Below are positions 5,838 to 56,896 of a stretch of 64,000 nucleotides of DNA, piece by piece. How positions within the stretch are numbered: the first letter of the stretch is position 1; each line of letters opens with the position of its first letter. This DNA is from a virus (Duplodnaviria > Heunggongvirae > Uroviricota > Caudoviricetes): positions 1-64,000 of the IMG/VR virus record IMGVR_UViG_3300035208_005635; one strand, written 5' to 3'. The position numbers were made by a program, and so were the translations under genes. The notes under the pieces are model-generated. The model had not been told where the DNA came from, searched no databases, and saw only the letters and a program-made list of their open reading frames with translations.

Positions 5838-6065
5838 TTATAAGACTTTTATAAAATTAAAAGTGTCTTGTTTATCATCGTAATTCCACTTTTTTATATC
5901 TTCTTCAAAATAAGCATTTCTCACTATAGCAACCCTGAGCAAATTGCCTTTTTCTGTTCCTACCACGGATAATCTATATGCCTGTGCTTCTTCCAAGGTT
6001 TCAAATATTTCCTCGTTGCTCTCTGAACTGCTTACTACAAAAAATACTCTAGTTTTTTTATCCAT
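5838..6065 (-). CDS. hypothetical protein
   Basis: 75 aa ORF, first gene of the minus-strand block. Confidence 0.35.
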   Translation of the reverse strand: MDKKTRVFFVVSSSESNEEIFETLEEAQAYRLSVVGTEKGNLLRVAIVRNAYFEEDIKKWNYDDKQDTFNFIKVL

Positions 6066-6075
6066 ATATTTAAAA

Positions 6076-6558
6076 TTAATTATATTTTTCTAATAATAAT
6101 TTTTGTTTTATCAGATGATGGGCTGTTGTTCCGATGGCTACCGCATCAGCTTCGTCTTCCCCTCTTACTTTCCCTGGGAATTCTAGTTTGACTAACTTCT
6201 GATAGTCCTGTTTTTTAGAACGAATACTGACTCCATAATAAGCTCTAGTCTGCTGGGGAGCTATGTCGATAATTTTAGCCTCCATATCAAAAGCAAGGGA
6301 TAATACTATACCCCTCGCCATCCCTAATTTTAAGCCTACTTGAGGATTAGGCCCTATAAAGGGTGTTTCTACTGCAAAGTAGTCAACGATACCAAACTTT
6401 AGGCAGACCCTCTCTAAAGCCCGTTTAAAGGCTCTCAGACGAGTATAGAAGGTGTCTGAGACTTTAAAGTCTAGCTGTTCTGAGTATTTTAGCTTGCCCA
6501 TCTGAAAAAAAGCAATTCCTGCCTTAGTAGAACCTGGGTCAACAGAGATTAAATTCAT
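6076..6558 (-). CDS. ruvC: RuvC-family Holliday junction resolvase
   Basis: N-terminal ISVDPGSTKAGIAFF (RuvC DPG motif). C-terminal EDEADAVAIG acidic catalytic motif. 160 aa. Confidence 0.75.
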   Translation of the reverse strand: MNLISVDPGSTKAGIAFFQMGKLKYSEQLDFKVSDTFYTRLRAFKRALERVCLKFGIVDYFAVETPFIGPNPQVGLKLGMARGIVLSLAFDMEAKIIDIAPQQTRAYYGVSIRSKKQDYQKLVKLEFPGKVRGEDEADAVAIGTTAHHLIKQKLLLEKYN

Positions 6559-12486: not shown

Positions 12487-14103
12487 TTATTGCATTTTTG
12501 GTTCGGGTATATCTTCTAGGCAAATTGTTGCCTCTACGGTTAAGAACATCTCTGCAATACTGCTGGCATTTTCTAGAGCACATCTAACAACTTTGGTTGG
12601 GTCGATAATACCCTCGTCTTTCATACTTACATAGCTTTCAGTTTCTGCATTATAGCCAAAGTCTTTATCATCACTATTTAAAATGTCGTTCATTATAACT
12701 TCTGATTTTAATCCGCCATTTTCGAGAATTTGCTTGAAAGGTTTTTCTACCGCATCAAAGACAATTTCTACACCTTTCTTTTCATTAGCGGTTAAAGTTG
12801 GGTCTTCTAAAAGTTTAGAATTTTGTCTTGCTCTTATTAAAGCAGTTCCTCCGCCAATAACAATTCCTTCCTCAAGAGCTGCTTGAGTTGCACTAATGGC
12901 GTCTTCTATTCTAAGTTCTAAATCACGCTGTTCAGTTTCACTATTAGCACCAACATTTATAATACCAACAACTCCTGAAAGTTTACCTAAACGGTCTCTT
13001 AGATTTTCTTTGTTGAAATCAGATTTTTCTTCGTCTAGGTCTTTTTGCAATTCTGCTATTCTCGATTCGATTAATTTTTTATCTCCCGCACCTTCTATAA
13101 TAGTAGTAAAGTCTTTTGTGGATTCTACTTTTCTTGCTCTTCCTAAATGAGATATTTCTATATTCTCTAGCTCTAGGCTTAAATCCTGAGTGATAACTGT
13201 TCCGCCAGTTAAAATTGCAACATCCTGCAAGAAAGACTTTTGCTTCTCTCCGTAGTAAGGAGCTTTGACAACTAGACTTCGATAGCTACCTTTAACATTA
13301 TTAACAATTAAAGAGGTAAGGGCATCTCCTTGCATATCACCGCAAAGAATAACAAGCTCTCTAGTCCCTGCGGTAGCTAACTTTTCTAAAATAGGAAGTA
13401 ATTTACCCATTTCAGAAATAGCTTTATCAGTGATTAAGATATAAGCTCCTTTTCCGTTATTATCAAATTCTCCTGTTTTCTTATCTCTGTCTGTAATCAT
13501 ATAAGGAGAAACAAATCCTTTGTCGAATCTGAAACCTTCAACCATTTCTACTTCTATGGTATTAGTGTTTCCTTTCTCAACATTTAAAATACCTGCCTTG
13601 CCTACTTTATTCATAGCTTCGGCAATTAACTTTCCTATATCGGCGTCTTTAGCTGAAATAGTGGCAACATTTTCCATTTGAGCAGTATCTTTTATCTCAA
13701 CAGAAATTTTCTTTAATTCGTCTACTAGACTTTTTACGCCTTTCTTAATACCTTTTTTAATACCGATGACACTCATACCTAATTCAGTATATTTCATTCC
13801 CTTAGAAATCATTTCTTGGGCTAGAACAACAGCAGTAGTTGTTCCGTCTCCTGCTTCATCATTTGTCTTAATAGAGGCGGATTTAATTAGTTTGGCACCC
13901 ATATTCTCAAATCTGTCTTTCAAGTCGATTGCTCTGGCAACAGTAACTCCGTCCTGATTAATGTCTGGTTCTCCCCATTCTTTTTCAATAACAACATTTC
14001 GACCCTTAGGACCGAGAGTGACTTTGACAATGTTGGCGAGGGTATCAACACCTCTCTTCATTGTTTCTCTTGAAAGTTTGTTTTGCTGAATTTGCTTTGG
14101 CAT
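12487..14103 (-). CDS. groL: chaperonin GroEL (Cpn60)
   Basis: 538 aa. [18 protein letters not shown]-binding signature and the characteristic equatorial/apical pattern. Ends ...PKMQ. Confidence 0.85.
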
Positions 14104-22742: not shown

Positions 22743-25700
22743 TTAAACTCCTTGGGGTATATTCATTGGAGGCTTTGCTATTTTCGGGTCTTGAGCAGGG
22801 TCTTCTTCAGTATCTTTTGATTCTGTAGGTCCATAAAGAGATTCTTCAAACTTACAAGTATCTTCATTAACTATGAAAAATCTTTCTCCGCTTTTTCCGT
22901 GTCTATTTTTATCTATGTTTATTCTAGCCCATTTCTCTAGTTCGCGATTTGCCATTCTCTTTCTCCAGAGTAAAGCAACTATATCAGCATCTTGTTTTAT
23001 TGCTGAACTGTCTTTCAAGTCTTCCATAGTCGGCTTGTCATTATCGTTTCCTAATTTTTTAATATGACAAATTAAAACTACAGGAACCATTAGCTTTCTA
23101 GCAAGCAATTTGCAATATCTAACTATATCAGAAATTTCTATTGTTCTATTTCTACTGTCTCCCGAGGCAAAGAAATGCAAGTGGTCGATAAATATAATTC
23201 TGCAACCAAAGTCTTTAACTGCTTTTTCTGAAACAGAACCTAATAATTGCGTATTTATTTTTTCGTAGCCCGAATATAAATAAATAGGTTTGCTAGCGAT
23301 ACCTTTATAAACTTCTTCTAGCTTAGAAAATTCTCCTTTGGCGTCTTTTTTAATTAACTCTGATTGGCGAACGTTTCCTTGAAGCATCATAAATCTCTCA
23401 GCTATTTCTTCAGGAGTCTGTTCTAAACTAAAATACATTACTGGTATAGGGTCTGGATTATTTTTTTCGTCTTTGTGGTTGACAATATTCATAACCATAT
23501 TTTGCGTAAAGAAAGTGTTATGATTAATAATAAAATTTTCGAGAATATACAATTGGTCTTTATCAAGAGAAAATCCATAGTAGTCTCCGACAGGCCACTC
23601 CCAAATTCTAAATCTAGTAGTCAACCAATTTATGTCTGTGACTTCTTTTTTTACTATTTTTCTTTTTACCTTTAAAGGTATTCTTTTTACGTCTCCTGAA
23701 ATATAAACTCTATAACTTTGAAAGTTTCTTCCCAAGCAAGTGGTTGTTCTTTCTTTTAGAGTAGAGGCAAAGAACCCCAAAGACCGAGCCAAGAAAATAA
23801 CGTCTTCACAAAGCTGTTTATTCTTATTAGAAAAAGAGTATCCTACTTTTTCTTTATTACCGTCACTGTCTATTAAGCCTGCTAATAATTCTAGTCTATT
23901 TTTCTCAGAGTTTATCTTATAATTTTGTGGTATATGCTTATTCTCTATGAGATTTTCTTTCTTTAAGAGGCTTAACAAAGATAGGGCAGAACCGTATCCC
24001 TTCTTGCCTGTTTTATATATGTATTTTCCTTTGTGTGTTTTGTTCACACCTTCAAATTTCTTTTCTCTCGTTAAACAATAATACTTTGATTTATTGTTTG
24101 GTTGGTTTTTTGTAACCAGTTGAAGATTTAATCTATTTGCGTAATCTCTTAAATATTTTTCTATCTCAAAATCAGCAGAGGTAACACAAGGTCCTGAGCT
24201 TGTTCCATCACCTAACCATAACCCCAGAAAGTAAGGTTCAAGAGATACTTTTTTCTCTTTAAACTTTATTGATTTTGGGTGTTCAAGATAATAAACGTGT
24301 TTTCTCTTACTCGCAAGTTTTATCCAGTTATCTATTGTGATATCGATTGTATCTGGGTAGTGCGGATACTTTTTAGTATTTTTCTTAAGGTGTAGCAAAT
24401 GATTTCTGTTAACCACAAAATTCTCTGCACCTTTTTTAGGTTCAACTTTCCACATTTTTTCTCTGCCTCTTGCTAATTTTAAAACCGTCCTCGGAGTGCT
24501 GTCAGGACCCATTAACTTGTCTCCAATTTTTATGTCCTCTACTTTTTTTAAAGTTCCGTTATACATTAACACCTTTGTTCCCTTAGCGTGGCACTTTCCA
24601 ACGCCAGTGTCTCCAGAAATAACAATTAGATTTCCGTCTCGCATTCCACGCCATACATCGTCTAATAATTTCCAACCGGTAGACATTCCTCTGAGGACAT
24701 TTGGATTCTTCATTTCTTCCATTGCGGTTTTAGCAACTTCTTTTATTTTTTTTATATGCTCGCTTTCAACGGTTATTTTTTTAGCGGAGTTGTATAAATT
24801 ATTAAAATCGTCTACTGTTTTTTTCTTAACCGCAAAAAAGTCATTTAAGTCTTTTTGTCCAGGCTCTTTTGGTATTTCTATTATTCGACATCTGCTGGCT
24901 CCTAATTTTTCTATAGCGAGTAAATTTCCTTTTTGACCTGCCTCATCGTTGTCATAACAGTTATGAGAAATTACTTTTTGTTCTGTAATATAGCTATGGT
25001 CGTCTTTTACATCTATATTATAAGTTTCTTCATCTATTACCTGTTTAATAGATATTTTTCTTACTCTATTTAAAAGATAAAAATTTTCCCAGAATTTTTT
25101 CATCTGAACTTGACATTTTTTACTAGGAGATATCTCAGCAAGACTAACTGTATATCTTTTTTTCCAAGTTTTTTCTTTATACGACCAATCGTGTGTTGTA
25201 AATCCGTAACCACACTGTAGAGCAAGAATTTCAAAGAATTTAATAATAGACTCGTTTGTATTACTAAATTTAATGTATTTATATTTTTTATCTATTGTTC
25301 CGTCTGAATCTATTAGACCTTGCAATATCTCTTTCTTATTAAGGGAGCTACGAAATATATCATAAGAAACACTTTTCATTCTAGGCATCATTTTAGATGA
25401 GTCTCCTGCAACCTCTTGATAAAAATTCTTAAACCCATATAATCTAGAATCATACGAATATAAACATCCTATATTTCCTTTCTCTACTGTCGAATATTTT
25501 ATTTTATATTTGTCAAAGAATTTTTTTACTCTTTCCAAAATATGCTTTTTTGTTTTTGTGTTATATGCCAATTCAAATCTATACTTTCTTGAGTAATGTC
25601 CGTCTCCTAAAAACAAACCCAAAAGATAAGAGAAGTCTTTATCTTGAATCATCTTCGTGTTAGCAATATCTATAAATTCTTCCCCAAACTCAGAACCTTC

Positions 25701-28010
25701 TTTTAATCTCCCCCTTTCGTCTCTTTCTGAAATCTTTTGAGTTATTCTTCTTTCAAAAAAGCTAAAGGATACTCCTAACTCCGAACCAAATTTAGGAAAA
25801 AGTAAATAGTCTCCTTCTCGAATTTCTCCCGCTTTTTTCCAAATAGGCTCTTTCAGAAATTCTCTTCTATTTTTTATATACTTAATATTTTCTTTTTCAT
25901 AAACAAGAATAGGATGATTACTTGTAACCCAATTCTCAGTATTTTTAGTTTGACCGACAATAGAAAACTTTCTCATTTCTCCTGAATACACATTCTTCAT
26001 TACTTTATAAACCTCTTTTAAATTTCCTATGTGAGTCCAAACACTATCAGAGACCTTAATATCCTCAATATTTTTTAATCCTTGACGAGTATAAATCTTT
26101 GTTCCTTTCTCATAGCATAAATAAATACTATTCACTTTCTGCATAGCATCTGCCCACTCTTGTTTGAATGTCTGAGCTCCACAGGTTACGCTTACAACAT
26201 TCTCCCAACCTTCCTGATAAAGGCTCATTGCGTCTATTTCTCCTTCGGTAATAACTAATTTATTCGCTCCTTTGATTACATCTCCGTTAAACAAAACCAT
26301 TTTTCCTCCGTGGACATTCATCATTTTAGGAGCTTCTGGGTCGAGGGGATTTCCTCGGTATCTAATATTTACCACTTTGCTGTTTTCAAATATTGGAATA
26401 GAAATGCTGGTTCCCGTCCAACCTATTTTAAAATGCTCTAATGTTTCAGGTAATAGCTTTCTAGTAACTGTTAAATATTCATAAATTTGACCCGTTACTG
26501 AGTTCTTGTCGTCTTTCTTCTCAAGTAGAGTCTTGTGATACTCTTCAATCGAGGTCTGGTATCTCTTCATTTCTACCTCGCTAGGACCTTTATTCTCCTT
26601 CTCCTGAGGTTTTTCTAGCTCTTGCGGGGATTTTACTGTCTCAGATAAATTACGCGAATTAGAGCCATTAGAGGGCTCAATTTCAGGTTTTGTATAATCA
26701 TTATAAAATTTCGCTAATGTTATTATATTTCCAGATTTACCGCAATTATGAACAGCACAACCTGAGACATTATAAGTATGACTATCTTCTACGGTTAAGT
26801 CATAAACATCTACATTTTTAACTTCTGTAGTAACTATTTTCTTTAAAAATTTTATTCCTTTTACAGAATTTTCTGAACAATCCCAACGAATAGTCCAACA
26901 TTTTTTATGGTGAACTCCTTTTTTATCTATTTTTTCTTCCTCTGAATTTATAGAAGCAGTTCTTCCTAATCCCCACAAGGCAAAATATATCTGAATAGCT
27001 AATTTCTTTGATACTGTTTTGCTAGAATTTTGTTTTTTAAACCCGTCTCCTGCAAAATACCCTTCTAAGATGTTTGGTAAAATATTAGAAGATAGAAGAC
27101 AGTTGGGTATATGTTTATTTTCTGCCCCCCTCCCGCAATTCTTTTCAAACCATCTTTCTAAGTAAACTCCAAAAACTTGAAGACTCTCTCCATTAGGACT
27201 AATAGAGGATTGAAGAGAGTTGAATCCATATTTCGTAAATAGTTTTTTTACTCTGTCTATGTTCTTCTGCTCTTTTTTATGAAAGGCAAAAGTAATACAT
27301 CTAGAAGATTTAGCTCCGTCTGCAATATATAATCCTACGCACCACCAAAATTCTCCGTCATTAAACATTTCTTCTGTAATAACTTTCGGCACAGGTCCTT
27401 TGGCTGATAAAATATAACTAGAAGCATCGCCACAATAATTAGGATAAAATCTGCTTACTTCATAAATATCTCGCCTATCAATTATGGGCATCTCCAAACC
27501 ATATAAAGGTTTTATTTTATCTGCCTCCAGCCAAATAGATTGTTTTGCTAAAGATTTAAAATTTCTTTTTTGATTCTTTAACTTTTTACTTCTAGGATTA
27601 CAGGAAAAAACAGATAAGAGATGGTTGGGAGTGCAAGTTATGTCTAGTAAATCTATAGAAGAATTACAAGACAAAGTAGTAAGCTTTCCTGTATATTTTC
27701 TCGAGATAGTATTGAGAACCTCTTTGTATCTTCCTTCTTTTGTTAAGACAAAATCGCCCTTTTTTATGTCTCTAATTTCTTTTATTCCGTTGCTTGTTCT
27801 TACCAAAGAATTTCCTGTGAAACATTTATGACAAAAATATAAACCTTTAGTGCTAATATAAAAATGGGTCCAATCTTCTTTATTTTCTCTGCAAAAAGGG
27901 CATTTATTAGTAATAATCTGGTCGCCTTCTGCTCTAGTTTTTAGTCCTTTGCTTTGAAGATAGTTAGTTATCTCTGAGGCAGTGGGATTAATGAAGTTTA
28001 AAGGAGTCAT
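22743..28010 (-). CDS. DNA primase-helicase (CHC2 zinc finger + Toprim + DnaB/gp4-like helicase) interrupted by three inteins
   Basis: The extein totals about 650 aa. It has a CPFC..H..C zinc finger, a Toprim domain (VITEGEIDAMS ... YDNDEAGQ), a P-loop ISGDTGVGK|T and a later helicase region (IFIDHLHF, LICHIKK). Three Hint insertions begin at CFTGNSLV, CYEKGTKI and CHAKGTKV; each ends in HN followed by C, C or T. Confidence 0.8.
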   Translation of the reverse strand: MTPLNFINPTASEITNYLQSKGLKTRAEGDQIITNKCPFCRENKEDWTHFYISTKGLYFCHKCFTGNSLVRTSNGIKEIRDIKKGDFVLTKEGRYKEVLNTISRKYTGKLTTLSCNSSIDLLDITCTPNHLLSVFSCNPRSKKLKNQKRNFKSLAKQSIWLEADKIKPLYGLEMPIIDRRDIYEVSRFYPNYCGDASSYILSAKGPVPKVITEEMFNDGEFWWCVGLYIADGAKSSRCITFAFHKKEQKNIDRVKKLFTKYGFNSLQSSISPNGESLQVFGVYLERWFEKNCGRGAENKHIPNCLLSSNILPNILEGYFAGDGFKKQNSSKTVSKKLAIQIYFALWGLGRTASINSEEEKIDKKGVHHKKCWTIRWDCSENSVKGIKFLKKIVTTEVKNVDVYDLTVEDSHTYNVSGCAVHNCGKSGNIITLAKFYNDYTKPEIEPSNGSNSRNLSETVKSPQELEKPQEKENKGPSEVEMKRYQTSIEEYHKTLLEKKDDKNSVTGQIYEYLTVTRKLLPETLEHFKIGWTGTSISIPIFENSKVVNIRYRGNPLDPEAPKMMNVHGGKMVLFNGDVIKGANKLVITEGEIDAMSLYQEGWENVVSVTCGAQTFKQEWADAMQKVNSIYLCYEKGTKIYTRQGLKNIEDIKVSDSVWTHIGNLKEVYKVMKNVYSGEMRKFSIVGQTKNTENWVTSNHPILVYEKENIKYIKNRREFLKEPIWKKAGEIREGDYLLFPKFGSELGVSFSFFERRITQKISERDERGRLKEGSEFGEEFIDIANTKMIQDKDFSYLLGLFLGDGHYSRKYRFELAYNTKTKKHILERVKKFFDKYKIKYSTVEKGNIGCLYSYDSRLYGFKNFYQEVAGDSSKMMPRMKSVSYDIFRSSLNKKEILQGLIDSDGTIDKKYKYIKFSNTNESIIKFFEILALQCGYGFTTHDWSYKEKTWKKRYTVSLAEISPSKKCQVQMKKFWENFYLLNRVRKISIKQVIDEETYNIDVKDDHSYITEQKVISHNCYDNDEAGQKGNLLAIEKLGASRCRIIEIPKEPGQKDLNDFFAVKKKTVDDFNNLYNSAKKITVESEHIKKIKEVAKTAMEEMKNPNVLRGMSTGWKLLDDVWRGMRDGNLIVISGDTGVGKCHAKGTKVLMYNGTLKKVEDIKIGDKLMGPDSTPRTVLKLARGREKMWKVEPKKGAENFVVNRNHLLHLKKNTKKYPHYPDTIDITIDNWIKLASKRKHVYYLEHPKSIKFKEKKVSLEPYFLGLWLGDGTSSGPCVTSADFEIEKYLRDYANRLNLQLVTKNQPNNKSKYYCLTREKKFEGVNKTHKGKYIYKTGKKGYGSALSLLSLLKKENLIENKHIPQNYKINSEKNRLELLAGLIDSDGNKEKVGYSFSNKNKQLCEDVIFLARSLGFFASTLKERTTTCLGRNFQSYRVYISGDVKRIPLKVKRKIVKKEVTDINWLTTRFRIWEWPVGDYYGFSLDKDQLYILENFIINHNTFFTQNMVMNIVNHKDEKNNPDPIPVMYFSLEQTPEEIAERFMMLQGNVRQSELIKKDAKGEFSKLEEVYKGIASKPIYLYSGYEKINTQLLGSVSEKAVKDFGCRIIFIDHLHFFASGDSRNRTIEISDIVRYCKLLARKLMVPVVLICHIKKLGNDNDKPTMEDLKDSSAIKQDADIVALLWRKRMANRELEKWARINIDKNRHGKSGERFFIVNEDTCKFEESLYGPTESKDTEEDPAQDPKIAKPPMNIPQGV
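23517..24593 (-). mobile_element. intein 3 (359 aa, LAGLIDADG) inside the helicase Walker A motif
   Basis: The extein reads GDTGVGK-[intein]-TFFTQ. Begins at CHAKGTKV. Contains YFLGLWLGDG and LAGLIDSDG. Ends IINHN with a +1 Thr. Confidence 0.75.
24960..26117 (-). mobile_element. intein 2 (386 aa, LAGLIDADG) within the Toprim domain
   Basis: Begins at CYEKGTKIYT. Contains LLGLFLGDGH and LQGLIDSDGT. Ends ISHN with a +1 Cys (CYDNDEAGQ). Confidence 0.75.
26745..27824 (-). mobile_element. intein 1 (360 aa, LAGLIDADG homing endonuclease) within the primase zinc-finger region
   Basis: Begins at CFTGNSLV. Contains LYIADGAKS and GYFAGDGFK. Ends VHN with a +1 Cys. Confidence 0.75.
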
Positions 28011-28021
28011 AATTTATTATT

Positions 28022-29026
28022 TTAATTTATTAAAGTTGTGCCGGTTAAGACACCTTCAATGTATTTTATATAGCTTTCTTGGTCTTCTTTGCTTATTTTA
28101 GAATAAAAATAACCAAAACATTCGCCGAGTATCTTGTCGTTACTGAAAAACCAGACAGGAGGACGGCTGTGATTTTTGTCTTTGTGCCAAGAATCTCTGT
28201 AAAAGCCGATAATTGCTAAGCTAATATCTAAAGGGCTGAAACTTAACAAAGCTTTCTTTAAAGCAATATCCGCAGGGTTGCCTATTAAAATCTTTCCTGA
28301 AGTGGCGTTGACTGAAACGAACTTCCAGTAAATCTCAAATATTCTTTTTCTAATTTCTGAAGAAAACTCTCCCCACTGTTTTATATCTTCCTGAAGAGGT
28401 GATTTAGAAATCATTTCAGGAGATTTTTTGGGTGAATCGAGAGGGAGAGTCTCTCTCTCTCTTTTCTTATTATTATATATATTATTATTGTATGTGGTTT
28501 TCACATAGCTTGGTATGTGATTTTCACATAGGTCTTCTGTGATTTTCACATAGCCTATGTGATTTTCACATACGTCTTTATTTTTGACAAAATCACCTTT
28601 TTGTTTTAATTTTATTTTCCCTAAAATTACTGTATCATACCAAAGTTGGGTAGTCTTGATATATTTAGTTTCAGGGTCTCTTTCTATTAATCCTTTTCTT
28701 TGAAGATTTGACAGAATGTTAAAAATAGACCACTGTTTAAATCCTAGCATTTGACTAATTTTTTTCTTTGAAGCATAGCACCACCCAGGGACTCTACTGC
28801 CAGGATTATTAGAAAGATTATAAATACTGTCTGCTACGCAATATTCATTCAGAGATAAGTCTAGTTTCCTTCTTGCCTCGTGTAATATAAGGGAATAACT
28901 AAGAACTTCTTTTTCTACTTCTTTATTTTCTTTTGGCATAGAATCACAAGTAAGGTTAATAAAAATACAGTATTCGGTTGTCATTGCTATTGCCCCCCAC
29001 TTGCGGTGATTAGCAATAGATAACAA
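28022..29026 (-). CDS. replication initiator-like protein (lambda O-like) with winged-helix region and internal origin iterons
   Basis: 334 aa. HTH-like region (QMLGFKQWSIFNILSNLQRKGLIE). Four palindromic iterons inside the coding sequence encode a repeated ...CENHI... peptide. Confidence 0.5.
   Translation of the reverse strand: MLSIANHRKWGAIAMTTEYCIFINLTCDSMPKENKEVEKEVLSYSLILHEARRKLDLSLNEYCVADSIYNLSNNPGSRVPGWCYASKKKISQMLGFKQWSIFNILSNLQRKGLIERDPETKYIKTTQLWYDTVILGKIKLKQKGDFVKNKDVCENHIGYVKITEDLCENHIPSYVKTTYNNNIYNNKKRERETLPLDSPKKSPEMISKSPLQEDIKQWGEFSSEIRKRIFEIYWKFVSVNATSGKILIGNPADIALKKALLSFSPLDISLAIIGFYRDSWHKDKNHSRPPVWFFSNDKILGECFGYFYSKISKEDQESYIKYIEGVLTGTTLIN
28451..28575. repeat. candidate origin: (CT)6, an AT-rich tract and four palindromic iterons TATGTGAtttTCACATA at about 21-bp spacing
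   Basis: GTGATTTTCACATAG at 28517, 28539 and 28559, and GTGGTTTTCACATAG at 28494. tattattatatatattattattg at 28466-28489. ctctctctctct at 28451-28463. Confidence 0.6.
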
Positions 29027-29113
29027 CCAAATACTGTATTTTATGCAAGTGGGAGTAATCTAATTTTTAGACAATTTAAGTATAGCATATTTTAGGAATT
29101 TAATCAAATATTG

Positions 29114-29184
29114 AGGGAGGCCTAGGAATCGAACCTAGATAGCTTGCACCACAAGCAAGTGCTCTACCATTGAACTAACCACCC
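29114..29184 (-). tRNA. tRNA-His (anticodon GTG)
   Basis: Acceptor gggtggt/gcctccc with one U-U mismatch. D-arm gttc..gagc. Anticodon stem cttgc/gcaag with loop ttGTGgt. T-arm ctagg-ttcgatt-cctag. No encoded G-1. Confidence 0.75.
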
Positions 29185-29195
29185 GTTGCCAGCCT

Positions 29196-29218
29196 CTTCG
29201 AAAAAGGCCGGCTTTTTT
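29196..29218 (-). terminator. weak A-tract / GCCGGC / T-tract palindromic terminator-like element
   Basis: aaaaaggccggctttttt lies between the SSB-like gene and tRNA-His. Confidence 0.3.
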
Positions 29219-29224
29219 GAAATT

Positions 29225-30436
29225 TTAAAACGGAATATCGTCTATGTTGACTTCATCTTCTGACTCTGGTTCTATTTTCTCTGGCTTTTCTGGTTCTGCT
29301 TTTTTTTGCTCTTGCTGAACTACAAATTCTTGCTCTCCGCCGTCATTGTCTACAGCGATTACCTCTTCCTTAGGTCGAGCCGTTTCAGCTTCTTCGTCTA
29401 GATTAATTGTCGGGACGACTTCTGCTTCTTTTAAACCAGCGGCACTTTCAACAGAAACTATCGCATCACAGTCGGGGAATTTAGAACATCCGAAGAACGG
29501 TCCTTTAAAGCTGTCTTTCAAAATCATCGGAGCTCCGCATTTAGGACAAGTCGGATTTACAAACTCTTCAGGAAAGTGAATTTGATACTTAGCAATTATA
29601 CTCTCTTGATTATCTTTACCTTTTACTGTGGTTGTATCAGGTTCAGAACGGAAAGTTTCTCTTACTTCGTCAAAAGCTTTTAAGCTTTCGTCAAGCTTCT
29701 GTCTCATACGGATATAAGTCTTGACATCGTTTTCTTCCTGTCTATCAAAGATAAGCGGGAAATAAGTAACTGTTCCTGCTTTTTCTTTCTTAGTAGTGAC
29801 CTTAGTTTTATACGCAAACAGCGGGACACCATTAAGCTTTGGTTTATATTCCCAGAAACCGTCTCTGCCTGACTTAGACAGATACATTCTGTGGACGACA
29901 CTATTATATTCCACATAGAGAATTTCTGTGTGTTTTATAATACTGCCTGTGAAACCACGCTCGGCTAAAGCCGCATCAGCAAAATTTTCGTTGATGTAGG
30001 CTTTGAAATCTTTATAGCCTCCTTGGAAGATAACTTTTTTCTCTTCGTTATTCCATAATCTGACTTCTCCGTTGTAGTCATCTTGCTCGGCTGTTCCATA
30101 AAGCTCCATTCCATTTTGACCTTTATTGCTGTCAAAATAACCATACTTCCACCTAGACCTTAAAATCGTCACTGTGATTTCTTTTCCTAGGTTAGTAATC
30201 TTTTTGACATACTCTCCTTTTTCATTTGGCTCTTTTGTAACCAGAATGAAACTTCCTCTATCGCCATTATCTTCGTCATAGTTGACTCTGATTTCTGGGA
30301 TAGCCATTTTTACTCCTTGCCCTTCCCCAGCATAGAGTTTGAAAAGCATTTTTTCATCCTCGCTAAGGGTGTCTAATTTCCCTGCAATCTGCAGAGCAAC
30401 AGCCACATCCTTTTTTTCTTCTTGTGTTTCAGGCAT
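29225..30436 (-). CDS. SSB-like protein with topoisomerase-type zinc finger and acidic DDIPF C-terminal tail
   Basis: Ends ...EDEVNIDDIPF, matching the canonical SSB C-terminal tip DDDIPF. CPKCGAPMILKD ... GCSKFPDCDAIV is a topoisomerase-type Zn-ribbon. Highly acidic linker. Confidence 0.45.
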   Translation of the reverse strand: MPETQEEKKDVAVALQIAGKLDTLSEDEKMLFKLYAGEGQGVKMAIPEIRVNYDEDNGDRGSFILVTKEPNEKGEYVKKITNLGKEITVTILRSRWKYGYFDSNKGQNGMELYGTAEQDDYNGEVRLWNNEEKKVIFQGGYKDFKAYINENFADAALAERGFTGSIIKHTEILYVEYNSVVHRMYLSKSGRDGFWEYKPKLNGVPLFAYKTKVTTKKEKAGTVTYFPLIFDRQEENDVKTYIRMRQKLDESLKAFDEVRETFRSEPDTTTVKGKDNQESIIAKYQIHFPEEFVNPTCPKCGAPMILKDSFKGPFFGCSKFPDCDAIVSVESAAGLKEAEVVPTINLDEEAETARPKEEVIAVDNDGGEQEFVVQQEQKKAEPEKPEKIEPESEDEVNIDDIPF

Positions 30437-30465
30437 AATTTAATATTATGTTAATTATTAAACTT

Positions 30466-31152
30466 TTAAGGCATCAAGCTATTAGCATTATCTCCATACT
30501 TAGCTTGCCATTTTTCAGGATTCATATATCTAACTCTTTCTTTCAAGGTGACTATTAAATTGTCTACAGAGGTTACATAAAAATTTAATAGTTCTGCCTT
30601 GCGTAATTTTTCTCCTTCTATTTTTGACCAAGTATAAGCTCGGTAACTAGCTTCGTCTTTTAGATTATCCTCGGTGTAGCTTTTCTTGACTGCTAGATTG
30701 ATAGCTTTTTTTCCTTTTTCTTTTACTTCTTCTTTTAGAGCATCTACTAAAATCTTTGCTTCTATTTTTTCTAGTTCTTCGCGAAGTCTGTCTTTTCTAA
30801 AATTTACTTTGAAACCTACTTCATTAAACTTTTTCCAAATAGTTGAATAAAAAGCTCTAGCCTTATTATCAACTAATTGTTCTCCTAGATATGGTCTTAA
30901 TCCGTTCAAGACTCCGATGTAATACATCAGTTGGTCGGCAGTTAAGCATAAATATCCTGAATCCGTTATAATTTTATCAGGAGATAAAACAGGATTCTGA
31001 GCGTCATTGATAGTGTCAATTCCTAGATAAGAAGTGATTGTCTTATAGTCTTTAATCGCTCTTCTTTGATTAGGTGTCAATTCTGTTTTTACTGTTTCAA
31101 AAGCTTCGTCTAGTTTTTGTTCAGCTTCGTGAACTAAGTTTGGTTGTGTCAT
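30466..31152 (-). CDS. hypothetical protein
   Basis: 228 aa helical ORF. Confidence 0.4.
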   Translation of the reverse strand: MTQPNLVHEAEQKLDEAFETVKTELTPNQRRAIKDYKTITSYLGIDTINDAQNPVLSPDKIITDSGYLCLTADQLMYYIGVLNGLRPYLGEQLVDNKARAFYSTIWKKFNEVGFKVNFRKDRLREELEKIEAKILVDALKEEVKEKGKKAINLAVKKSYTEDNLKDEASYRAYTWSKIEGEKLRKAELLNFYVTSVDNLIVTLKERVRYMNPEKWQAKYGDNANSLMP

Positions 31153-31397
31153 AATTGTCCTTGAGCATAGCTCTTTTTTAGATAAGCAACGATGTCTGAA
31201 TAATGGGCTCTAAAGGCAGTTCCGACCTTGATAGCAGGAATTTTATTATCTCTCATTAACTCTCTTATAGTTACGTGAGAGGCTCCTGCTAACCAACCGC
31301 CAGTTTCAATTTCAACAGGCGTTAGATATATTCTGCCAGTTTTTTTGACAAATATTTCTAATGACTGTTTTGTTTTTTCAAATCCTTGATTACTCAT
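31149..31397 (-). CDS. small HTH DNA-binding protein (excisionase/AlpA-like)
   Basis: ASHVTIRELMRDNKIPAIKVGTAFR is a helix-turn-helix pattern. Confidence 0.4.
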   Translation of the reverse strand: MSNQGFEKTKQSLEIFVKKTGRIYLTPVEIETGGWLAGASHVTIRELMRDNKIPAIKVGTAFRAHYSDIVAYLKKSYAQGQL

Positions 31398-32242
31398 ATT
31401 TTTTCAAGATTATCCTTTTTGATTTCCACTATCTTTGCTAGTCTCTCCGCAAAAACTTTGGCATCAGGTAAATTATTATCCGCTTCGCAGGCATCTCGAA
31501 AGTCGCACCAAGAACAAACCATTCCATTGTCTACCGGGTGGAATATTTTTTGTTCTATACCTCTGTTTATACTCTCAAGAGTATTGAGTAAGCGACTAAT
31601 TTTTTCGTCTGTAATTTCTGCTTTTAGAATTTGAATTTTAGGTTCCTTAGTTTTAACTACTACGTCTAGCTGAACTCCTTTTTCTTTTCTGCCAAATTTT
31701 GTTCTAAATCCCAAAGCATAAGCCGCTAACTGAGTATTTTTTTCAATGTCTTCTTCTGAGTAGCTAGAGCCCGAAGTTTTTGTATCGTGAATAATATCGT
31801 TCTCGTCTATAACATCTAAATACATTAAAAACTCTTGTCCAAAAATATCTAAGGTGACTCCTATTTCTACATAGGCAGGTTGAAGTTTTGTCATTACCTC
31901 ATCATAAAGTTTTTTAAGGCAACGCTTAGCTGAAGCGATAATATCTTCTCCTGATTCTCTTTTGCCGTATTTTAATTTAAAGAAATTAGGATTGTCTGCA
32001 TTGTCTTTAAATTTTTGAATTAAATACTCAACCATAAAATCTTCTACCTCTTGATACGGTCTGTCTACTCGGCTTTCTATCTTTTGCCGATAATTAAATT
32101 CTTGGGCCTTATGAATAGCCGACCCAAATACTAGACCTGTTGATTCTCCCATAGATTCTTTTTTGTCCACATAAGAATAATTATATTTTCTCGGACAAGA
32201 TGAGTAAGTAAACATTTGAGAAACGCTTCTGTGATTAGTCAT
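31394..32242 (-). CDS. PD-(D/E)xK nuclease, Cas4/RecB-like with Cys cluster
   Basis: N-terminal Cys (YSSCPRKY). DVIDENDIIHDTKT fits the D...D/ExK motif. C-terminal CSWCDFRDAC. Confidence 0.5.
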   Translation of the reverse strand: MTNHRSVSQMFTYSSCPRKYNYSYVDKKESMGESTGLVFGSAIHKAQEFNYRQKIESRVDRPYQEVEDFMVEYLIQKFKDNADNPNFFKLKYGKRESGEDIIASAKRCLKKLYDEVMTKLQPAYVEIGVTLDIFGQEFLMYLDVIDENDIIHDTKTSGSSYSEEDIEKNTQLAAYALGFRTKFGRKEKGVQLDVVVKTKEPKIQILKAEITDEKISRLLNTLESINRGIEQKIFHPVDNGMVCSWCDFRDACEADNNLPDAKVFAERLAKIVEIKKDNLEKI

Positions 32243-32250
32243 AAATTTTT

Positions 32251-33987
32251 TTACCCCTTCATATTATAATATTTTCCAACTTTACTGTCAGATAAAGATT
32301 CATAATATGTAGAAAGGTTTTTTAATTGTTCGTGTTCCATTCCAATAACAAACGAATGAAGTATTATTTTTTTCTTTTCTAAAAATTCTTTTGTCAAACT
32401 TACATTATCTCCTCCGTCTGTGATGACAAGAATGTCCGCTCTGTCATATAAATCACTCTTGTCGCTAGGGTCTTGCTTAAATAATTTAGGGTTGTTAATG
32501 TCGTTTATTGCTTGGTGAATTGCTCCGTCTATGCTTGTTCCTCCCCCAGAATGACGATATTCCATTAGGAATTTAACTTCTTTTTTTGCTTCTTCCTCGT
32601 TGGTTACTTTTTTTAAATCGTGAGGTTGGTCGTCAAAGAATCTATAAAAATAGATACTTTTTTCTGTTAAGGCTTTTTTGACATAGGCTAAGGCTATACC
32701 ACAGGCTACTGTTTGATTTCTTCCGTCCATCGAGCCTGAGCAGTCAATCAATAAATAAATAATCTGCTTTTTCTTTCTGCGACTTTCAAACTGTTTCATT
32801 TTCAAGTCCTTGTCAAAAAGCATTTTGTCAAATAGCTCGTCTGGGTATCCAAACTGGTAAGGGAGAATATTCGGCAAGTCGTTTACCGACCTAATGTTTT
32901 GTATCTTCCAGTCTTTTTCAGGATAGTCTACGGGCGAACGCTGTTCTTCTCGGCAGTATTGTTCTGTTGCCCCTATTTTTCTAGCAATGTCTAAAATTCT
33001 ATAAGTTTCATCATCAACTTTTTGAGCTATCTTTTCGATATTTTTAGCCAGCCCTTCGATAGTCTTTAAAGAATTATGACCTGTTCCTGCTTGTCGTTCT
33101 ATTATTCCTCGAAACAATTCATCATCAAAAATATTATTCTCTAGAGCTTTTTCTATATCGGGTATTTTCTGATTAAATTTATCCATATCAATAGGCAAGT
33201 CCGGCGGGTTATCACTCATCTCTGTTTCTGGGGAGGTATCCATTTCTTCTTCTCCTTCTCCTTGAGGTTTGTTGTTATCTCCTTGACCTTGAGAAGAATC
33301 GCTTTTGCTATTTTTTCCTTGACTGCCACCTCCTTTTTGTTGACCTTGGGATTGAGAATTTTCTTCTTGCTCTTGTTTATCTTGTCCTTTGCTTTCTTGA
33401 TTTTGTTCCTCTGAATTTTCTTGTTCTTCTTCTCCCCCTTTACCTTTTCCTTTACCTTTTCCCTCACCTTCTCCTTCTCCTTCGCCCTCACCTTCGCCTT
33501 CTTTTTGCTCTTTGTCATCTTGACCTTGTTGACCTTCTCCTTTCTCTGATTGCTCTTGCTGTTCTTGTTTTTCACCCTGTTGACCTTTTCCTTTCTGTTT
33601 CTTCGGGTCAGGAGGTTTAGGACTAAACATATCAAGAATTATTCTGAGAGCTTCTTCAGGGTTATTTATGCCCTGTAATTGTTGAAATAATCTAGTGTGG
33701 CCGAACTCTCTGAGAAATTTTCTTACGGCATCATAATGATAATAGACTTTATAGTAATCTCTTAATCTTTTTTTAATATATCCATCAGCGACTTCGTCAT
33801 CTATCTCCATAGGTGTTTTTAGGATTTTGCTAGGATTAAGAGTTTCAAATAAAGCGAATAAATCTTTTGAGAAGTCCAAAGAAACTTTTTCTTTTGTTTC
33901 GGGGTTTATAGCTTCGACTTTTTCATCGGTTATTACTTCAACGGTTTCTGCTTGAGGCAAGGTTAATTGTTTATTAGTTACTCTCAT
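32251..33987 (-). CDS. von Willebrand factor A (vWA) domain protein with long low-complexity E/Q/G/K linker
   Basis: C-terminal MIDAS motif YLLIDCSGSMDG. Central region rich in GEGEGEGE/KGKGKGKG/QEQQEQ. Confidence 0.6.
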   Translation of the reverse strand: MRVTNKQLTLPQAETVEVITDEKVEAINPETKEKVSLDFSKDLFALFETLNPSKILKTPMEIDDEVADGYIKKRLRDYYKVYYHYDAVRKFLREFGHTRLFQQLQGINNPEEALRIILDMFSPKPPDPKKQKGKGQQGEKQEQQEQSEKGEGQQGQDDKEQKEGEGEGEGEGEGEGKGKGKGKGGEEEQENSEEQNQESKGQDKQEQEENSQSQGQQKGGGSQGKNSKSDSSQGQGDNNKPQGEGEEEMDTSPETEMSDNPPDLPIDMDKFNQKIPDIEKALENNIFDDELFRGIIERQAGTGHNSLKTIEGLAKNIEKIAQKVDDETYRILDIARKIGATEQYCREEQRSPVDYPEKDWKIQNIRSVNDLPNILPYQFGYPDELFDKMLFDKDLKMKQFESRRKKKQIIYLLIDCSGSMDGRNQTVACGIALAYVKKALTEKSIYFYRFFDDQPHDLKKVTNEEEAKKEVKFLMEYRHSGGGTSIDGAIHQAINDINNPKLFKQDPSDKSDLYDRADILVITDGGDNVSLTKEFLEKKKIILHSFVIGMEHEQLKNLSTYYESLSDSKVGKYYNMKG

Positions 33988-34009: not shown

Positions 34010-35236
34010 TTATTTGTCGACTTCATACATTAACTTTTGCTTGGTTTCGTCAATGGTTGTTTTTAATTTTTCCATAAAATCTTTTTTCCTCTTTTCAACA
34101 TTGTCATTAACTGTTGTTAATTGCCCTAATTTCTTTTGAGCCGAAGCCAAAGCTTTCAATCTTTCTATGAACTCGCTAGCTTGAAGAGTGACGTTTTTAA
34201 ATTCGTCTATCTTTAACTCTGCTTCTACTTTTGCGATTTCAGCTAATTGATTCTTTTCATCTTCAAGACCCTCTACACATCTCTTATAGACTTTATTAAA
34301 AGTCTCTTCATCATCTTCGTCATTCATCGTGCAAAGACCATATCTAACTTCAAATAAATCTGTAAATACTGCTTGCTTTCTTCCGTCTAATATGACAGCC
34401 GCTTTTACAATATCTAAAAGCTTATTAGAAGTTCTGGAAGAAATATACTTTTTGCGTTTAACATTTATTTCTTTGTCATATTCTGTAATCAACTCGTCAT
34501 AAACTTCTAAAACCTCATCAGAAATTATTACCTCATCAGAGTAAACTTTGTCTGTGAAGTCTTTCAACTGTTTCAAATCCAAAATAGGCTTAATCGGATA
34601 AGATGCTAATTTACCGCCTGCTTTGGCAAGATGCTGTGAATACATTTTAAGTTTATTGCTCTTGCTTTTTAGAGGTTTGACAATAGACTTAAATAAAAAT
34701 CTATCCAAAATAGGAATAGTTTTTTCATTTATAGATTGATAATTAGCAGTCGCTACCGCTGTGTGCAACATAGCGTCTTCCTGCTGTCTGCCTTCTATAA
34801 ATTTTCTTTCATTTAAAATGCCTAATAAAGTTCTTAAGACATCTTCTCTGCCGTCAAAGATTTCATCTATAAAAGCGAAGTCCGCTTCTAAGATTGAGCC
34901 TGTGATATCTCTCATTAGAAATCCTTTATCTTTCCAAGTAGGAATATCATAAGCACCAAATAAATGTTCTGATAAAGTAGCTTCAGACATTTGAATAGAA
35001 AATAATTTAGCATTTTGAACTAAATTAAAAGCGTGTTTAGCAAGCATCGATTTTCCTGTTCCTGCATCTCCCTGAAGAAAAACGTGCTCACCGATAAGCA
35101 TCGCATACATTAACTGCTTCAACTCCTTGTCTCTTTCTAAAAGAAACAAATTCTTAGAACTAAATCCTTTTTCCAAATCTTGTGTTCGGCTAGGTTTAGT
35201 CTGAGTTTGATTTTGATTTTCCATTTTTTTGGTCAT
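34010..35236 (-). CDS. MoxR-like AAA+ ATPase
   Basis: Walker A GDAGTGKSML. Walker B FAFIDEIF. Long helical C-terminal domain. Adjacent to the vWA protein. Lies downstream of conserved promoter P4. Confidence 0.65.
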   Translation of the reverse strand: MTKKMENQNQTQTKPSRTQDLEKGFSSKNLFLLERDKELKQLMYAMLIGEHVFLQGDAGTGKSMLAKHAFNLVQNAKLFSIQMSEATLSEHLFGAYDIPTWKDKGFLMRDITGSILEADFAFIDEIFDGREDVLRTLLGILNERKFIEGRQQEDAMLHTAVATANYQSINEKTIPILDRFLFKSIVKPLKSKSNKLKMYSQHLAKAGGKLASYPIKPILDLKQLKDFTDKVYSDEVIISDEVLEVYDELITEYDKEINVKRKKYISSRTSNKLLDIVKAAVILDGRKQAVFTDLFEVRYGLCTMNDEDDEETFNKVYKRCVEGLEDEKNQLAEIAKVEAELKIDEFKNVTLQASEFIERLKALASAQKKLGQLTTVNDNVEKRKKDFMEKLKTTIDETKQKLMYEVDK

Positions 35237-47068: not shown

Positions 47069-47144
47069 GTATATAGATATATAAATATATACATTTTTTA
47101 TTTAATTTATTACCGTATATAAATATATAGATATATAAAGATAT

Positions 47145-47465
47145 ATGGCTACTACAAAGATATTATTTTCTATAGAGCAGAAGAAAAAAGACTTATTTAA
47201 ACTAAAGGCTGTTTCGGAGAGAAAGACCATTACCGAGGTGCTAGTTAAATTTGTCGATAGCTATATCGGCAAAGGTTCTCCTGAAAATAATAAACAATTT
47301 GAATTTAGCGAAAAATCTGAGGAATTTCAAAAAGGATTAATTCCTCCTAAAGAAGAAGTTAGTGTTATTTCAGAAAAGGCTGAAAATTCTGCGGAGGTTA
47401 AGACAATCCCTAGAGCTAATCATTCTAATAAAAAGCCTTATCCTACTTTTTTTAAGAAAGTTTAA
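47145..47465 (+). CDS. possible ribbon-helix-helix (CopG/Arc-like) DNA-binding protein
   Basis: The N-terminal KILFSIEQKKKDLFKLKAVSERKTITEVLVKFVDSYI pattern is RHH-like. First gene of the plus-strand block. Confidence 0.35.
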   Translation: MATTKILFSIEQKKKDLFKLKAVSERKTITEVLVKFVDSYIGKGSPENNKQFEFSEKSEEFQKGLIPPKEEVSVISEKAENSAEVKTIPRANHSNKKPYPTFFKKV

Positions 47466-55105: not shown

Positions 55106-56896
55106 ATGATAAATATTACCCAAGAGCAATTAGAAAAAGATTCTTTGGAATTAGCAAAGAAAATTAAAAAATTTGGAACTAAGTTTGGATATGTAATAGG
55201 TATTTCAAGAGGGGGAATTATCCCAGCTCAAATAATTGCTAAAGAATTAGAAATTCCTTTCAAAAGTTCTGAGGAAATTAAATTCTTTGATTTTTCAAAG
55301 ATGCCCATTTCTTACCCTGGTGCTAGATTGCTTATTGTTGACGATTTAATTGATTCAGGGAAAACTCTGAAAGAGTTAGCTTTTAACCTTTCTTCTTTTA
55401 CGGTCAGAACGGCTGTTTTGTATAAGAAGAAAAATAAAAATCAAGCTATTTGTCCTAATTATTTTTTAAAGGAAGTTCCTAATCAATGGGTGTGTCTTCC
55501 TCACGAAGAAGGTTATGGAGTAGAAGACCATATTACTAGAATATTAGAATTTGTTGGAGAAGACCCAACAAGAGAAGGGTTAAAAGATACCCCTAGACGG
55601 GTCGCTAAGATGTATACTGAGATATTTAGAGGATACGACCCTACTCAGAAACCTAAGATAACTACTTTTCTTAACGGAAAGGATGGTATTACTTATAGTC
55701 AGATGATTATAGACGAAGGAACTTTTTATTCGCATTGCTTAACAGGAGATACGCAAATAAAAACTGTCAGAGGTATTTTCAGAATAAAGGATTTAGTAGG
55801 AAGAACAGAAGATGTCTTTTGTTATGATGAGAAGAATAAGAGATTTACAATTGCAAAAGCAAAAGACATAAGAATGACCTCTAAAAAAGCAGAGATTCTT
55901 AAGCTCACCACTGACTATGGGGCAATTTATGCAACAAGCGAGCATAAATTTTTGACCTACAACAGAGGTTGGGTAATGTTAAAAGACCTAAAACCAAAAG
56001 ATAGCTTAGTTGCTTTAAACTCTAGACTCTCAGGAAGTTACCTTACAACACAAGTATCTGATTCAAGAGATGGTTGGAGGAAAGAACATAATTTTATCTA
56101 TGAGGAGATGTCAGGAGAAAAATTAAAAAGTAAGGAGTTAGTTCATCATATTGATGGTGATAAAAGAAATAATATCTATGAGAATTTACAGAAGATGATA
56201 AATAAAGACCACACAGGGCTACACGCCAGAAAATATATGGCCTCCCTTTCTTCTGAACAAAAGTCAGAAATAGGCAAAAAAGCAAATTGGGGTTTTATTA
56301 GTTTAAGAGAAAAAGAGCCAGAGAAGTATAAATTAGTTAAAGAAAAAGCTAGAAATTCTTTAAAAAAGATGTATTCTAGCGAGAGGGGAATAGCTTTAAA
56401 GGAAAAGAAAAGTCGCGATACAAAAATTTGGTGGAAAAACAGAAAAGAAAAGAAGATGAAAAATCACCGAGTTGTAAAAGTTGAGTTTTCAGGATTTGAG
56501 CCTGTTTATAATATGGAAGTAGAGAAGTATCATAATTTTGTGGCTAATAGCCTCGTAGTCCATAATTGTGAGCATCATATGGTTCCATTCTTCGGAAAAT
56601 ACTATTTTGCGTATATACCAAATAAGACAATTATTGGTTTAAGTAAAGTTGCTCGAATAGTTGATTATTATTCTGCTAGATTGCAGGTTCAAGAAAGACT
56701 TGTCAGACAAATTGTAGATGAGATTGAGAAGTCCTGTAAGCCTCGTGGTATAGCATTGGTTATGAAGGCGGAGCATTTATGCAAAACAATGCGAGGTGTT
56801 AAAAAACAAGGTGTTATGACTGCTAGCGAGCTAAGAGGCTCTTTTGTTAAAGATTCTAAAGTTAGACAAGAATTTTTATCACTAATAAAAATATGA
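55106..56896 (+). CDS. folE: phosphoribosyltransferase-domain / GTP cyclohydrolase I (FolE) fusion, interrupted by an HNH intein
   Basis: Residues 1-135 form a type-I PRTase (VIGISRGGIIPA ... LLIVDDLIDSGKTL). Residues 140-210 plus the C-terminal 109 aa form FolE (EDPTREGLKDTPRRVAKMY ... FYSHC / CEHHMVPFFGKYYFAYIPN...). The intein sits exactly between YSH and CEHH. Confidence 0.75.
   Translation: MINITQEQLEKDSLELAKKIKKFGTKFGYVIGISRGGIIPAQIIAKELEIPFKSSEEIKFFDFSKMPISYPGARLLIVDDLIDSGKTLKELAFNLSSFTVRTAVLYKKKNKNQAICPNYFLKEVPNQWVCLPHEEGYGVEDHITRILEFVGEDPTREGLKDTPRRVAKMYTEIFRGYDPTQKPKITTFLNGKDGITYSQMIIDEGTFYSHCLTGDTQIKTVRGIFRIKDLVGRTEDVFCYDEKNKRFTIAKAKDIRMTSKKAEILKLTTDYGAIYATSEHKFLTYNRGWVMLKDLKPKDSLVALNSRLSGSYLTTQVSDSRDGWRKEHNFIYEEMSGEKLKSKELVHHIDGDKRNNIYENLQKMINKDHTGLHARKYMASLSSEQKSEIGKKANWGFISLREKEPEKYKLVKEKARNSLKKMYSSERGIALKEKKSRDTKIWWKNRKEKKMKNHRVVKVEFSGFEPVYNMEVEKYHNFVANSLVVHNCEHHMVPFFGKYYFAYIPNKTIIGLSKVARIVDYYSARLQVQERLVRQIVDEIEKSCKPRGIALVMKAEHLCKTMRGVKKQGVMTASELRGSFVKDSKVRQEFLSLIKI
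55736..56566 (+). mobile_element. intein (277 aa) with HNH homing endonuclease in FolE
   Basis: Begins CLTGDTQIKT. HNH region ELVHHIDGDKRNNIYENLQKMINKDHTGLH. Ends VVHN with a +1 Cys that is the catalytic CEHH cysteine. Confidence 0.75.

Follow-up and report, generated by a model that had tools for sequence, protein, structure and literature searches.

A stretch of 64,000 nucleotides (the window) from an uncultured tailed phage, comprising positions 1 to 64,000 of the 98.8-kb IMG/VR record IMGVR_UViG_3300035208_005635 and leaving ~35 kb of the contig beyond it, carries four palindromic iterons and an adjoining A/T tract inside a single minus-strand gene (28022..28939). From the sequence, we consider it probable that the array and the tract together form an initiator-dependent replication origin, of the type found in phage lambda and in plasmid pSK41, embedded in the gene for its own initiator. 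Several direct observations argue that this is a DNA element bound by the product of the gene that contains it: the layout is conserved throughout the protein family, the recognition helix covaries with the iterons, some relatives have split genes, and in the closest relative (locus L007) an entire module has been swapped. The anatomy of the element and the domain layout of the protein, set out first, are likewise observed directly.

Iterons, A/T tract and the protein encoded around them

Each iteron is a 17-bp dyad with 7-bp arms about a 3-bp centre, reading TATGTGA-TTT-TCACATA on the plus strand. In gene order, iterons 1 (28556..28572) and 3 (28514..28530) are perfect dyads, both TATGTGATTTTCACATA, and iterons 2 (28536..28552, TCTGTGATTTTCACATA) and 4 (28491..28507, TATGTGGTTTTCACATA) have one mismatch each; the last lies 1 bp from the A/T tract. 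The start-to-start spacing by ascending coordinate is 23, 22 and 20 bp. An earlier note made from these letters had described four 17-bp dyads at 20-23 bp spacing within the open reading frame (ORF) 28022-29026, and this description holds. Counted from the ATG at 28939, the array occupies 40-49% of the gene (coordinate arithmetic). With at most one mismatch allowed, the 13-bp core of the iteron has four matches in the 64 kb, all within 78 bp, compared with a mean of 0.22 in dinucleotide-preserving shuffles, none of which (0/100) reached four; a version of this test with two mismatches was too loose to mean anything, and the one-mismatch version was used. The array is the best-scoring tandem array of the window, and no second iteron cluster is found anywhere in it. 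Among viral contigs, the exact 17-mer gives six single matches, one copy per contig being the chance level.

The iterons are translated in two frames. Two sites encode CENHI, the peptide that the earlier note had assigned to all four, and the other two read YVKIT and YVKTT. Because the 20/22/23 bp spacing places the iterons in two reading frames, the constraint appears to act on the DNA and not on the peptide. After iteron 4 comes the putative DNA unwinding element (28467..28489), a pure A/T tract of 23 bp, rather than the 25 bp first reported, which is rich in TA steps and encodes NNNIYNN. By nearest-neighbour energy it is the least stable 25-bp duplex of the 64 kb, although it is coding. Beyond it lies an imperfect palindrome (28439..28463; GAGAGGGAGAG-T-CTCTCTCTCTC) with an 11-pair stem and a purine/pyrimidine asymmetry. 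The dinucleotide run first listed as (CT)6 is present as (TC)6 at 28450-28461, where it makes up one arm of this palindrome. Similar palindromes occur in L007 and in locus L014, and purine runs in L020 and L024-L026; any role for the palindrome is suggested by analogy with the one to the right of the A/T-rich region of lambda.

The longest ORF (28022-29026) runs to a TTG at 29026, but the ATG at 28939 (residue M30) is the likely start, because the N-termini of homologues begin about there and because a leader hairpin, described below, buries the in-frame starts upstream. An N-terminal winged-helix domain (about residues 40-147, coded by 28586..28909 on the minus strand) contains the motif IYNLSNNP..GWCYASK and the recognition helix KQWSIFNILSN. 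A helical C-terminal domain (about residues 220-334; 28025..28369, minus strand) is the putative partner-recruiting part. In the AlphaFold model the winged helix spans residues 48-147, with a predicted local distance difference test (pLDDT) score above 90 over about residues 50-140, and residues 220-330 are helical. Between them, residues 149-219 are modelled as disordered (pLDDT <50), and it is exactly this segment whose codons lie in the iterons, A/T tract and GA tract.

Database comparisons place the protein loosely. A Foldseek search with the winged helix returned MarR, MepR and CRP winged helices at E about 0.01, a sequence search of the PDB returned generic winged-helix regulators only, and Pfam matches are weak and of the MarR, CRP, TrmB and LexA winged-helix types; no Pfam or NCBIfam family is above threshold for the protein itself. 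PHROG matches over residues 44-222 are to DnaD-like helicase loaders, O-like replication initiation proteins and a replication initiation protein (E 3e-6 to 1e-4), and homologues reach E 9e-9 against the DnaD-like and replisome-organizer families concerned (PHROGs 186, 270, 428, 678 and 19658). The helix-turn-helix (HTH) family PF13730 has no match in the window protein; it has a precomputed match in 18 of 61 homologues, and for the proteins P0008 and P0020 the scores are 20.6-20.8 bits, the cutoff being 25. The C-terminal domain has nine matches among 1.84 billion representative proteins, found only on initiator-type N-domains. It belongs to no Pfam or PHROG family, and thus is neither Bac_RepA_C nor DUF6017.

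Conservation, covariation and exchange of the array among relatives

The N-domain defines a family of 61 homologous proteins with the signature IYHLSNNP..GWCYASK. Fifteen viral and five genomic loci (from Campylobacterota, Daviesbacteria and Pseudomonadales metagenome-assembled genomes) were retrieved, the viral ones with an alignment-based query, a single-protein query having given none in viral contigs. No cultured relative was matched among 50,697 phage records, either by megablast of 20 kb or by tblastn of the ORF. Of 19 related loci, 17 have three or more copies of a 13-mer within ~130 bp past the last conserved winged-helix codon, and in most loci this array is the best repeat cluster of the entire 4-9 kb locus. 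By inspection, the repeats are dyads with 6-7 bp arms and a central AAA, present in 3-5 copies at a spacing of 20-25 bp; the exact 20/22/23 spacing is common to the window, L010 and L014. An A/T tract encoding an 'NNIYNN' peptide directly follows the repeats in nearly all relatives, often with a purine run next, and two reading frames alternate from site to site in each locus. The half-sites themselves vary by locus (GTAAAG, TATGAAG, TATAACG, TGTGAAG, GGGACG, GTCTCA, TAGGACA and GTGACA).

In four relatives the repeats mark, or come just after, the end of the winged-helix ORF: L016 (4339-4400), L024 (4325-4395), L025 (2195-2285) and L026 (4325-4412). In L024 and L025 a separate small ORF begins after the A/T and purine-rich tract. 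The element in these split relatives lies between two genes. All four loci resemble initiators that have split naturally around the origin. A further viral family member, L023 (4001-4400), is interrupted by in-frame TGA codons and keeps three perfect iterons, GGTAAAGAAAGTTTACC, and the A/T tract; its host may have reassigned TGA (code 4 or 25).

Variation in the half-site follows the recognition helix. Across 17 loci, recognition-helix identity correlates with half-site identity (Mantel r 0.37-0.40, reached by at most 2 of 20,000 permutations), the half-site consensus having been assigned by hand, because automatic dyad picking failed for some loci, and the permutation test ignoring phylogeny. 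There is no such correlation for the neighbouring helix or the following segment (r -0.06 and -0.11) or for the whole domain (r 0.09). The linker peptides in the set of 61 homologues follow the same helix-repeat pattern. Glutamine at helix position 17 accompanies KETL/VKKV peptides, corresponding to GTAAAG-AAA-CTTTAC, in about 25 proteins; arginine goes with YEETS/CEESS and lysine with ITKG. Tryptophan at this position occurs only in the window and L015, both of which have TGTGA-type sites. The matched series Q17/GTAAAG, R17/TGAAG, K17/TAACG and W17/TGTGA might be used as a compact code of winged-helix specificity for DNA.

The closest relative, L007, shares the order of tRNA, initiator and primase-helicase genes with the window. 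Its C-domain is 77% identical, and its N-domain is unrelated, matching the DnaD-like phrog_2514 (3e-10). In the middle of its gene ~8 direct repeats of GAAAAGCGACA take the place of the dyads, and beyond them an A/T tract and a GA palindrome again come next. As judged from sequence, N-domain and repeats have been exchanged together in L007 as a module. In L012 and L019 the next gene downstream of the initiator gene is for a replicative helicase; in L018 and L020 such a gene lies a few genes farther on.

The core of the window iterons also recurs in initiator genes of another kind. Two adjacent cores (TGTGATTTTCACA-N5-12-TGTGATTTTCACA) were found by a scan of metagenomes at 61 loci (L030-L090), in which the 13-bp core TGTGAAAATCACA is present in 3-5 copies at ~23 bp spacing (for example, L032 2428-2463). 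In most of these loci the array lies inside initiator-like ORFs with a RepA_N consensus, and an A/T tract follows; three scanned representatives match RepA_N (PF06970) at 1e-21 to 1e-32. The arrays are read as CENHxS/VKIT. The proteins of these RepA_N-type loci have no tblastn relationship with the window protein, and their profile likeness is confined to 35 HTH columns. Since core and layout are shared and the proteins are not detectably related, two initiator families appear to use one site in one layout. The shared core could reflect convergence or the exchange of an origin cassette. RepA_N membership of the window protein itself was considered and rejected: it has no PF06970 domain match, hhalign aligns only the 35 HTH columns at a probability of 29%, and tblastn finds nothing.

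Likeness to known origins and competing explanations

The layout and the minimal needs for unwinding of lambdoid origins have been described (PMC7466680). The annotated ori-lambda, the gene O origin of lambda and lambdoid/Stx phages, contains four imperfect inverted-repeat iterons, TCCCTC-AAAAC-GAGGGA, spaced at 20/24/23 bp, and in both lambda and the window four dyad iterons with an A-rich centre (at 20/22/23 bp in the window) are followed along the gene by an A/purine-rich tract and then a palindrome. By coordinate arithmetic, the lambda iterons lie at 39-48% of gene O, close to the position of the window array in its gene, and the window protein, like lambda O, would have a DNA-binding N-terminal part and a partner-binding C-terminal part. 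Lambdoid relatives exchange specificity modules made up of N-domain and iterons, much as the window family does. The lambda element differs in its half-site (TCCCTC instead of TATGTGA), and the window has a shorter A/T tract (23 bp) and a larger genome (~99 kb); lambda P brings the host DnaB, whereas the presumptive partner in the window is a phage-encoded primase-helicase fusion. Membership of the lambda O family was rejected, since the family profile aligns with lambda O at a probability of 0.3% (hhalign) and there is no Phage_rep_O match (Pfam, E <=0.1); PHROG 'O-like' matches are weak (E 8e-6). The description of the site as a lambda-type origin in the earlier note stands as an analogy of architecture and mechanism, the order matching and the geometry nearly so.

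Plasmid pSK41 offers a similar three-part layout. Its Rep has a winged-helix N-terminal domain that binds four Rep boxes central in its own gene, an origin-encoded central part that is a dispensable linker, and a DnaD-like C-terminal domain that binds DnaG; RepA_N family members have been reported with the origin inside rep, and in pPR9 the N-terminal domain and the origin have been replaced by a PF13730-type phage module with the C-terminal domain kept (PMC5703833). The pPR9 swap resembles the exchange of N-domain and repeats in the window family, where the C-domain is again retained, and the PF13730 HTH of the pPR9 N-terminal domain belongs to the family with precomputed matches in many homologues of the window protein. 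The differences are that pSK41-type replicons are plasmids and the window a phage, and that the window C-domain matches no Pfam family. In phage SPP1, oriL lies inside gene 38, a second origin is present (oriR), and the replisome organizer G38P binds both regions (PMC6316719). As in the window, the repeats of the origin binder are inside its own gene, beside an A/T-rich unwinding element and with helicase genes following. SPP1 differs in having direct repeats, a separate loader (G39P, for helicase G40P) and the second origin; in the window a loader-like domain appears to be fused to the origin binder, and there is no second array in the 64 kb. Structural similarity between G38P and the window protein is marginal.

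These parallels suggest how the element may work. Dimers of the N-terminal winged helix would bind the four dyad iterons and, because the A-tract centres are about two helical turns apart, we propose that the bound dimers would occupy a single face of the helix and bend it into a nucleoprotein complex. The bent complex would strain the DNA, such that the adjoining 23-bp A/T tract melts. The C-terminal domain, tethered by a disordered linker encoded by the same DNA, would then recruit the Toprim-DnaB primase-helicase to the melted DNA, with the phage PolA-type polymerase taking over last. Binding, melting, helicase recruitment and use of the site as an origin in vivo are the parts of this scheme that we infer. 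We also entertain, tentatively and as something rather unlikely when taken whole, a broader joint proposal: that the C-domain is an undescribed adaptor that loads a self-contained Toprim-DnaB primase-helicase directly, with no separate loader, and that the core shared in the same frames and a similar layout by this phage and the replicons of Firmicutes plasmids and integrative and conjugative elements reflects origin-cassette exchange or strong convergence and not coincidence.

Several points weigh against an origin at this site. In one alternative, the sites are initiator-binding iterons and the main origin lies elsewhere, for example at 46-47 kb, in the other 35 kb of the contig, or at a T7-like promoter or recombination start; the array would then act in autoregulation, block forks or provide a secondary origin. 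Initiation can dispense with an origin-binding protein in phages that have a PolA-type polymerase and a primase-helicase fusion (T7-like replisomes), and this phage encodes both enzymes itself. The A/T tract is unexceptional at larger scale, ranking 36th among 40-bp windows and 123rd among 60-bp windows of the 64 kb, and at 40-60 bp it is surpassed by less stable intergenic regions near 47.1 kb and 6.1 kb (47070-47136 and 6050-6109), which are gene-strand switches. The cumulative GC and AT skews, proposed in the earlier note as a check on the origin, turn near 5.5 kb and 46 kb with no inflection at 28.5 kb. Another or an additional origin could lie in the less stable regions or in the part of the contig outside the window, and SPP1 provides a precedent in having both oriL and oriR (PMC6316719). 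Profile support for calling the window protein an initiator is weak (PHROG E about 1e-5 to 1e-6), and the hand-assigned half-sites and phylogeny-blind permutations qualify the covariation. We nevertheless judge a main origin elsewhere improbable. Skew follows gene strand and is therefore uninformative as an origin marker, transcription strand alone explaining its course; the 64 kb holds no second iteron cluster; the 47-kb region contains A/T low-complexity repeats only, with no sites matching the initiator; and the iteron and A/T layout is conserved in the family beside helicase genes.

Less probable again is that the sites are operators of a dimeric MarR/CRP-like regulator, serving autoregulation or as a roadblock in its own gene, with no part in replication. 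The nearest folds and the weak Pfam matches (MarR, CRP, TrmB and LexA) are to proteins that bind palindromes as dimers, and weak promoter-like matches on both strands overlap the array. However, four phased copies in mid-gene with a conserved A/T tract are not normal for operators, the second domain is restricted to initiator-type N-domains, and the PHROG matches are to replication initiators and DnaD-like loaders rather than repressors. The gene is also paired with a replicative helicase in several lineages, and in lambda, SPP1 and pSK41 this layout has been shown by experiment to be an origin.

Two further explanations seem very unlikely. The encoded segment is predicted to be disordered and contains CENHI twice, as might be expected if the repeats were a by-product of a low-complexity linker peptide or of a recent tandem duplication, with no function at the DNA level; but the repeats use two frames at spacings that are not multiples of three, the units are all palindromic as DNA, recognition helix and half-site covary, and in the four split relatives the repeats fall at or after the winged-helix stop codon, with the downstream ORF of L024 and L025 starting only after them. 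Small HTH proteins likewise bind short-repeat arrays at packaging (pac) and partition (par) sites, and some pac sites lie inside genes; that the array is a pac site or a centromere-like partition site bound by the winged-helix protein is equally hard to credit, given that about 33 kb separates it from the terminase-like gene (61812-63512), no ParA/ParB-type match occurs among the neighbouring ORFs covered by the scan (28022-33987), the gene that holds the array sits in a replication/recombination module, and the adjoining A/T tract is a feature of origins. An initiator-dependent origin within the initiator gene remains, in our view, the reading that these observations favour.

Genomic neighbourhood and significance

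The gene 12 bp downstream of the initiator gene (22743..28010, minus strand) encodes a 1755-residue Toprim-DnaB_C primase-helicase, presumed to be the client of the initiator. Its Pfam matches are DnaB_C (7e-40), Toprim_2, Hint, Intein_splicing, LAGLIDADG and Hom_end, bearing out the primase-helicase that the earlier note had placed here. The protein contains three separate Hint/intein regions with LAGLIDADG or Hom_end domains, and the L007 orthologue, of 1008 residues, contains one.

Upstream, the initiator gene is preceded by two elements that probably control its expression and lie outside the origin proper (28957..29107). A promoter-like site, TTGATT-17-TATACT (29107-29079, minus strand), follows the tRNA-His gene and is identical in L007. 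It is followed by a long 5'-leader hairpin (29042-28957, minus strand) with a ~30-bp stem (-44.3 kcal/mol, z -6.2). This structure, which L007 retains with substitutions compatible with G-U pairing, buries an in-frame ATG upstream of the likely start and may control initiator expression as a leader or processing element. The immediate upstream neighbour is the tRNA-His gene itself (29113-29184), which alone reaches the Rfam gathering score in a scan of 27.8-29.4 kb, the rest being noise.

An SSB-like (single-stranded DNA-binding protein) gene had been named as the upstream flank. What lies beyond the tRNA is a 403-residue ORF (29225-30436, minus strand) with a Top1-type C4 zinc ribbon at residues 296-330 and an acidic tail ending ...DDIPF, like the tip of bacterial SSB; only the tail and the ribbon speak for the earlier assignment, and the ORF, which is not the immediate neighbour, has no oligonucleotide-binding fold, SSB profile or PHROG family match and was not accepted as an SSB. 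It may represent a new kind of single-stranded DNA-binding or recombination-mediator protein. It adjoins a 228-residue ORF with no family match and a PD-(D/E)XK exonuclease, and a small HTH protein is encoded farther upstream together with the exonuclease. The initiator gene is set in a replication/recombination module made up of the PD-(D/E)XK exonuclease, the zinc-ribbon/SSB-tail protein and the primase-helicase.

Elsewhere, the window codes for the PolA-type polymerase, 11 tRNAs, the terminase-like protein mentioned above and a GroEL-type chaperonin (12487-14103, minus strand; E 6e-147). A 578-residue ORF (32251-33987, minus strand), which follows an ATPase-like ORF (34010-35236), includes a low-complexity region, long, acidic and rich in Gly and Lys (GEGEGEGKGKGKG; tandem arrays at 33437-33502), and its C-terminus has PHROG matches to families of unknown function. 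A 596-residue ORF (55106-56896, plus strand) has phosphoribosyl-transferase-like, HNH-endonuclease and GTP-cyclohydrolase matches and may be an HNH element inserted in a deazaguanine-pathway gene. The segment 46000-47150 is ORF-poor and very A/T-rich, and contains a gene-strand switch and the cumulative GC skew minimum, with TATATAGATATATAAATATATA repeats at 47070-47145; either divergent promoters or an alternative origin may lie here.

An origin inside the initiator gene is already textbook knowledge from lambda, SPP1 and pSK41, and our view of phage origins is unchanged. What the window adds is a new protein family, to which the lambda/SPP1/pSK41 layout is now extended, and a primase-helicase as its presumed partner. 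For an uncultured ~99-kb phage, this provides a concrete candidate origin and a candidate initiator-helicase pair, useful for annotation and for the design of replicons and vectors.

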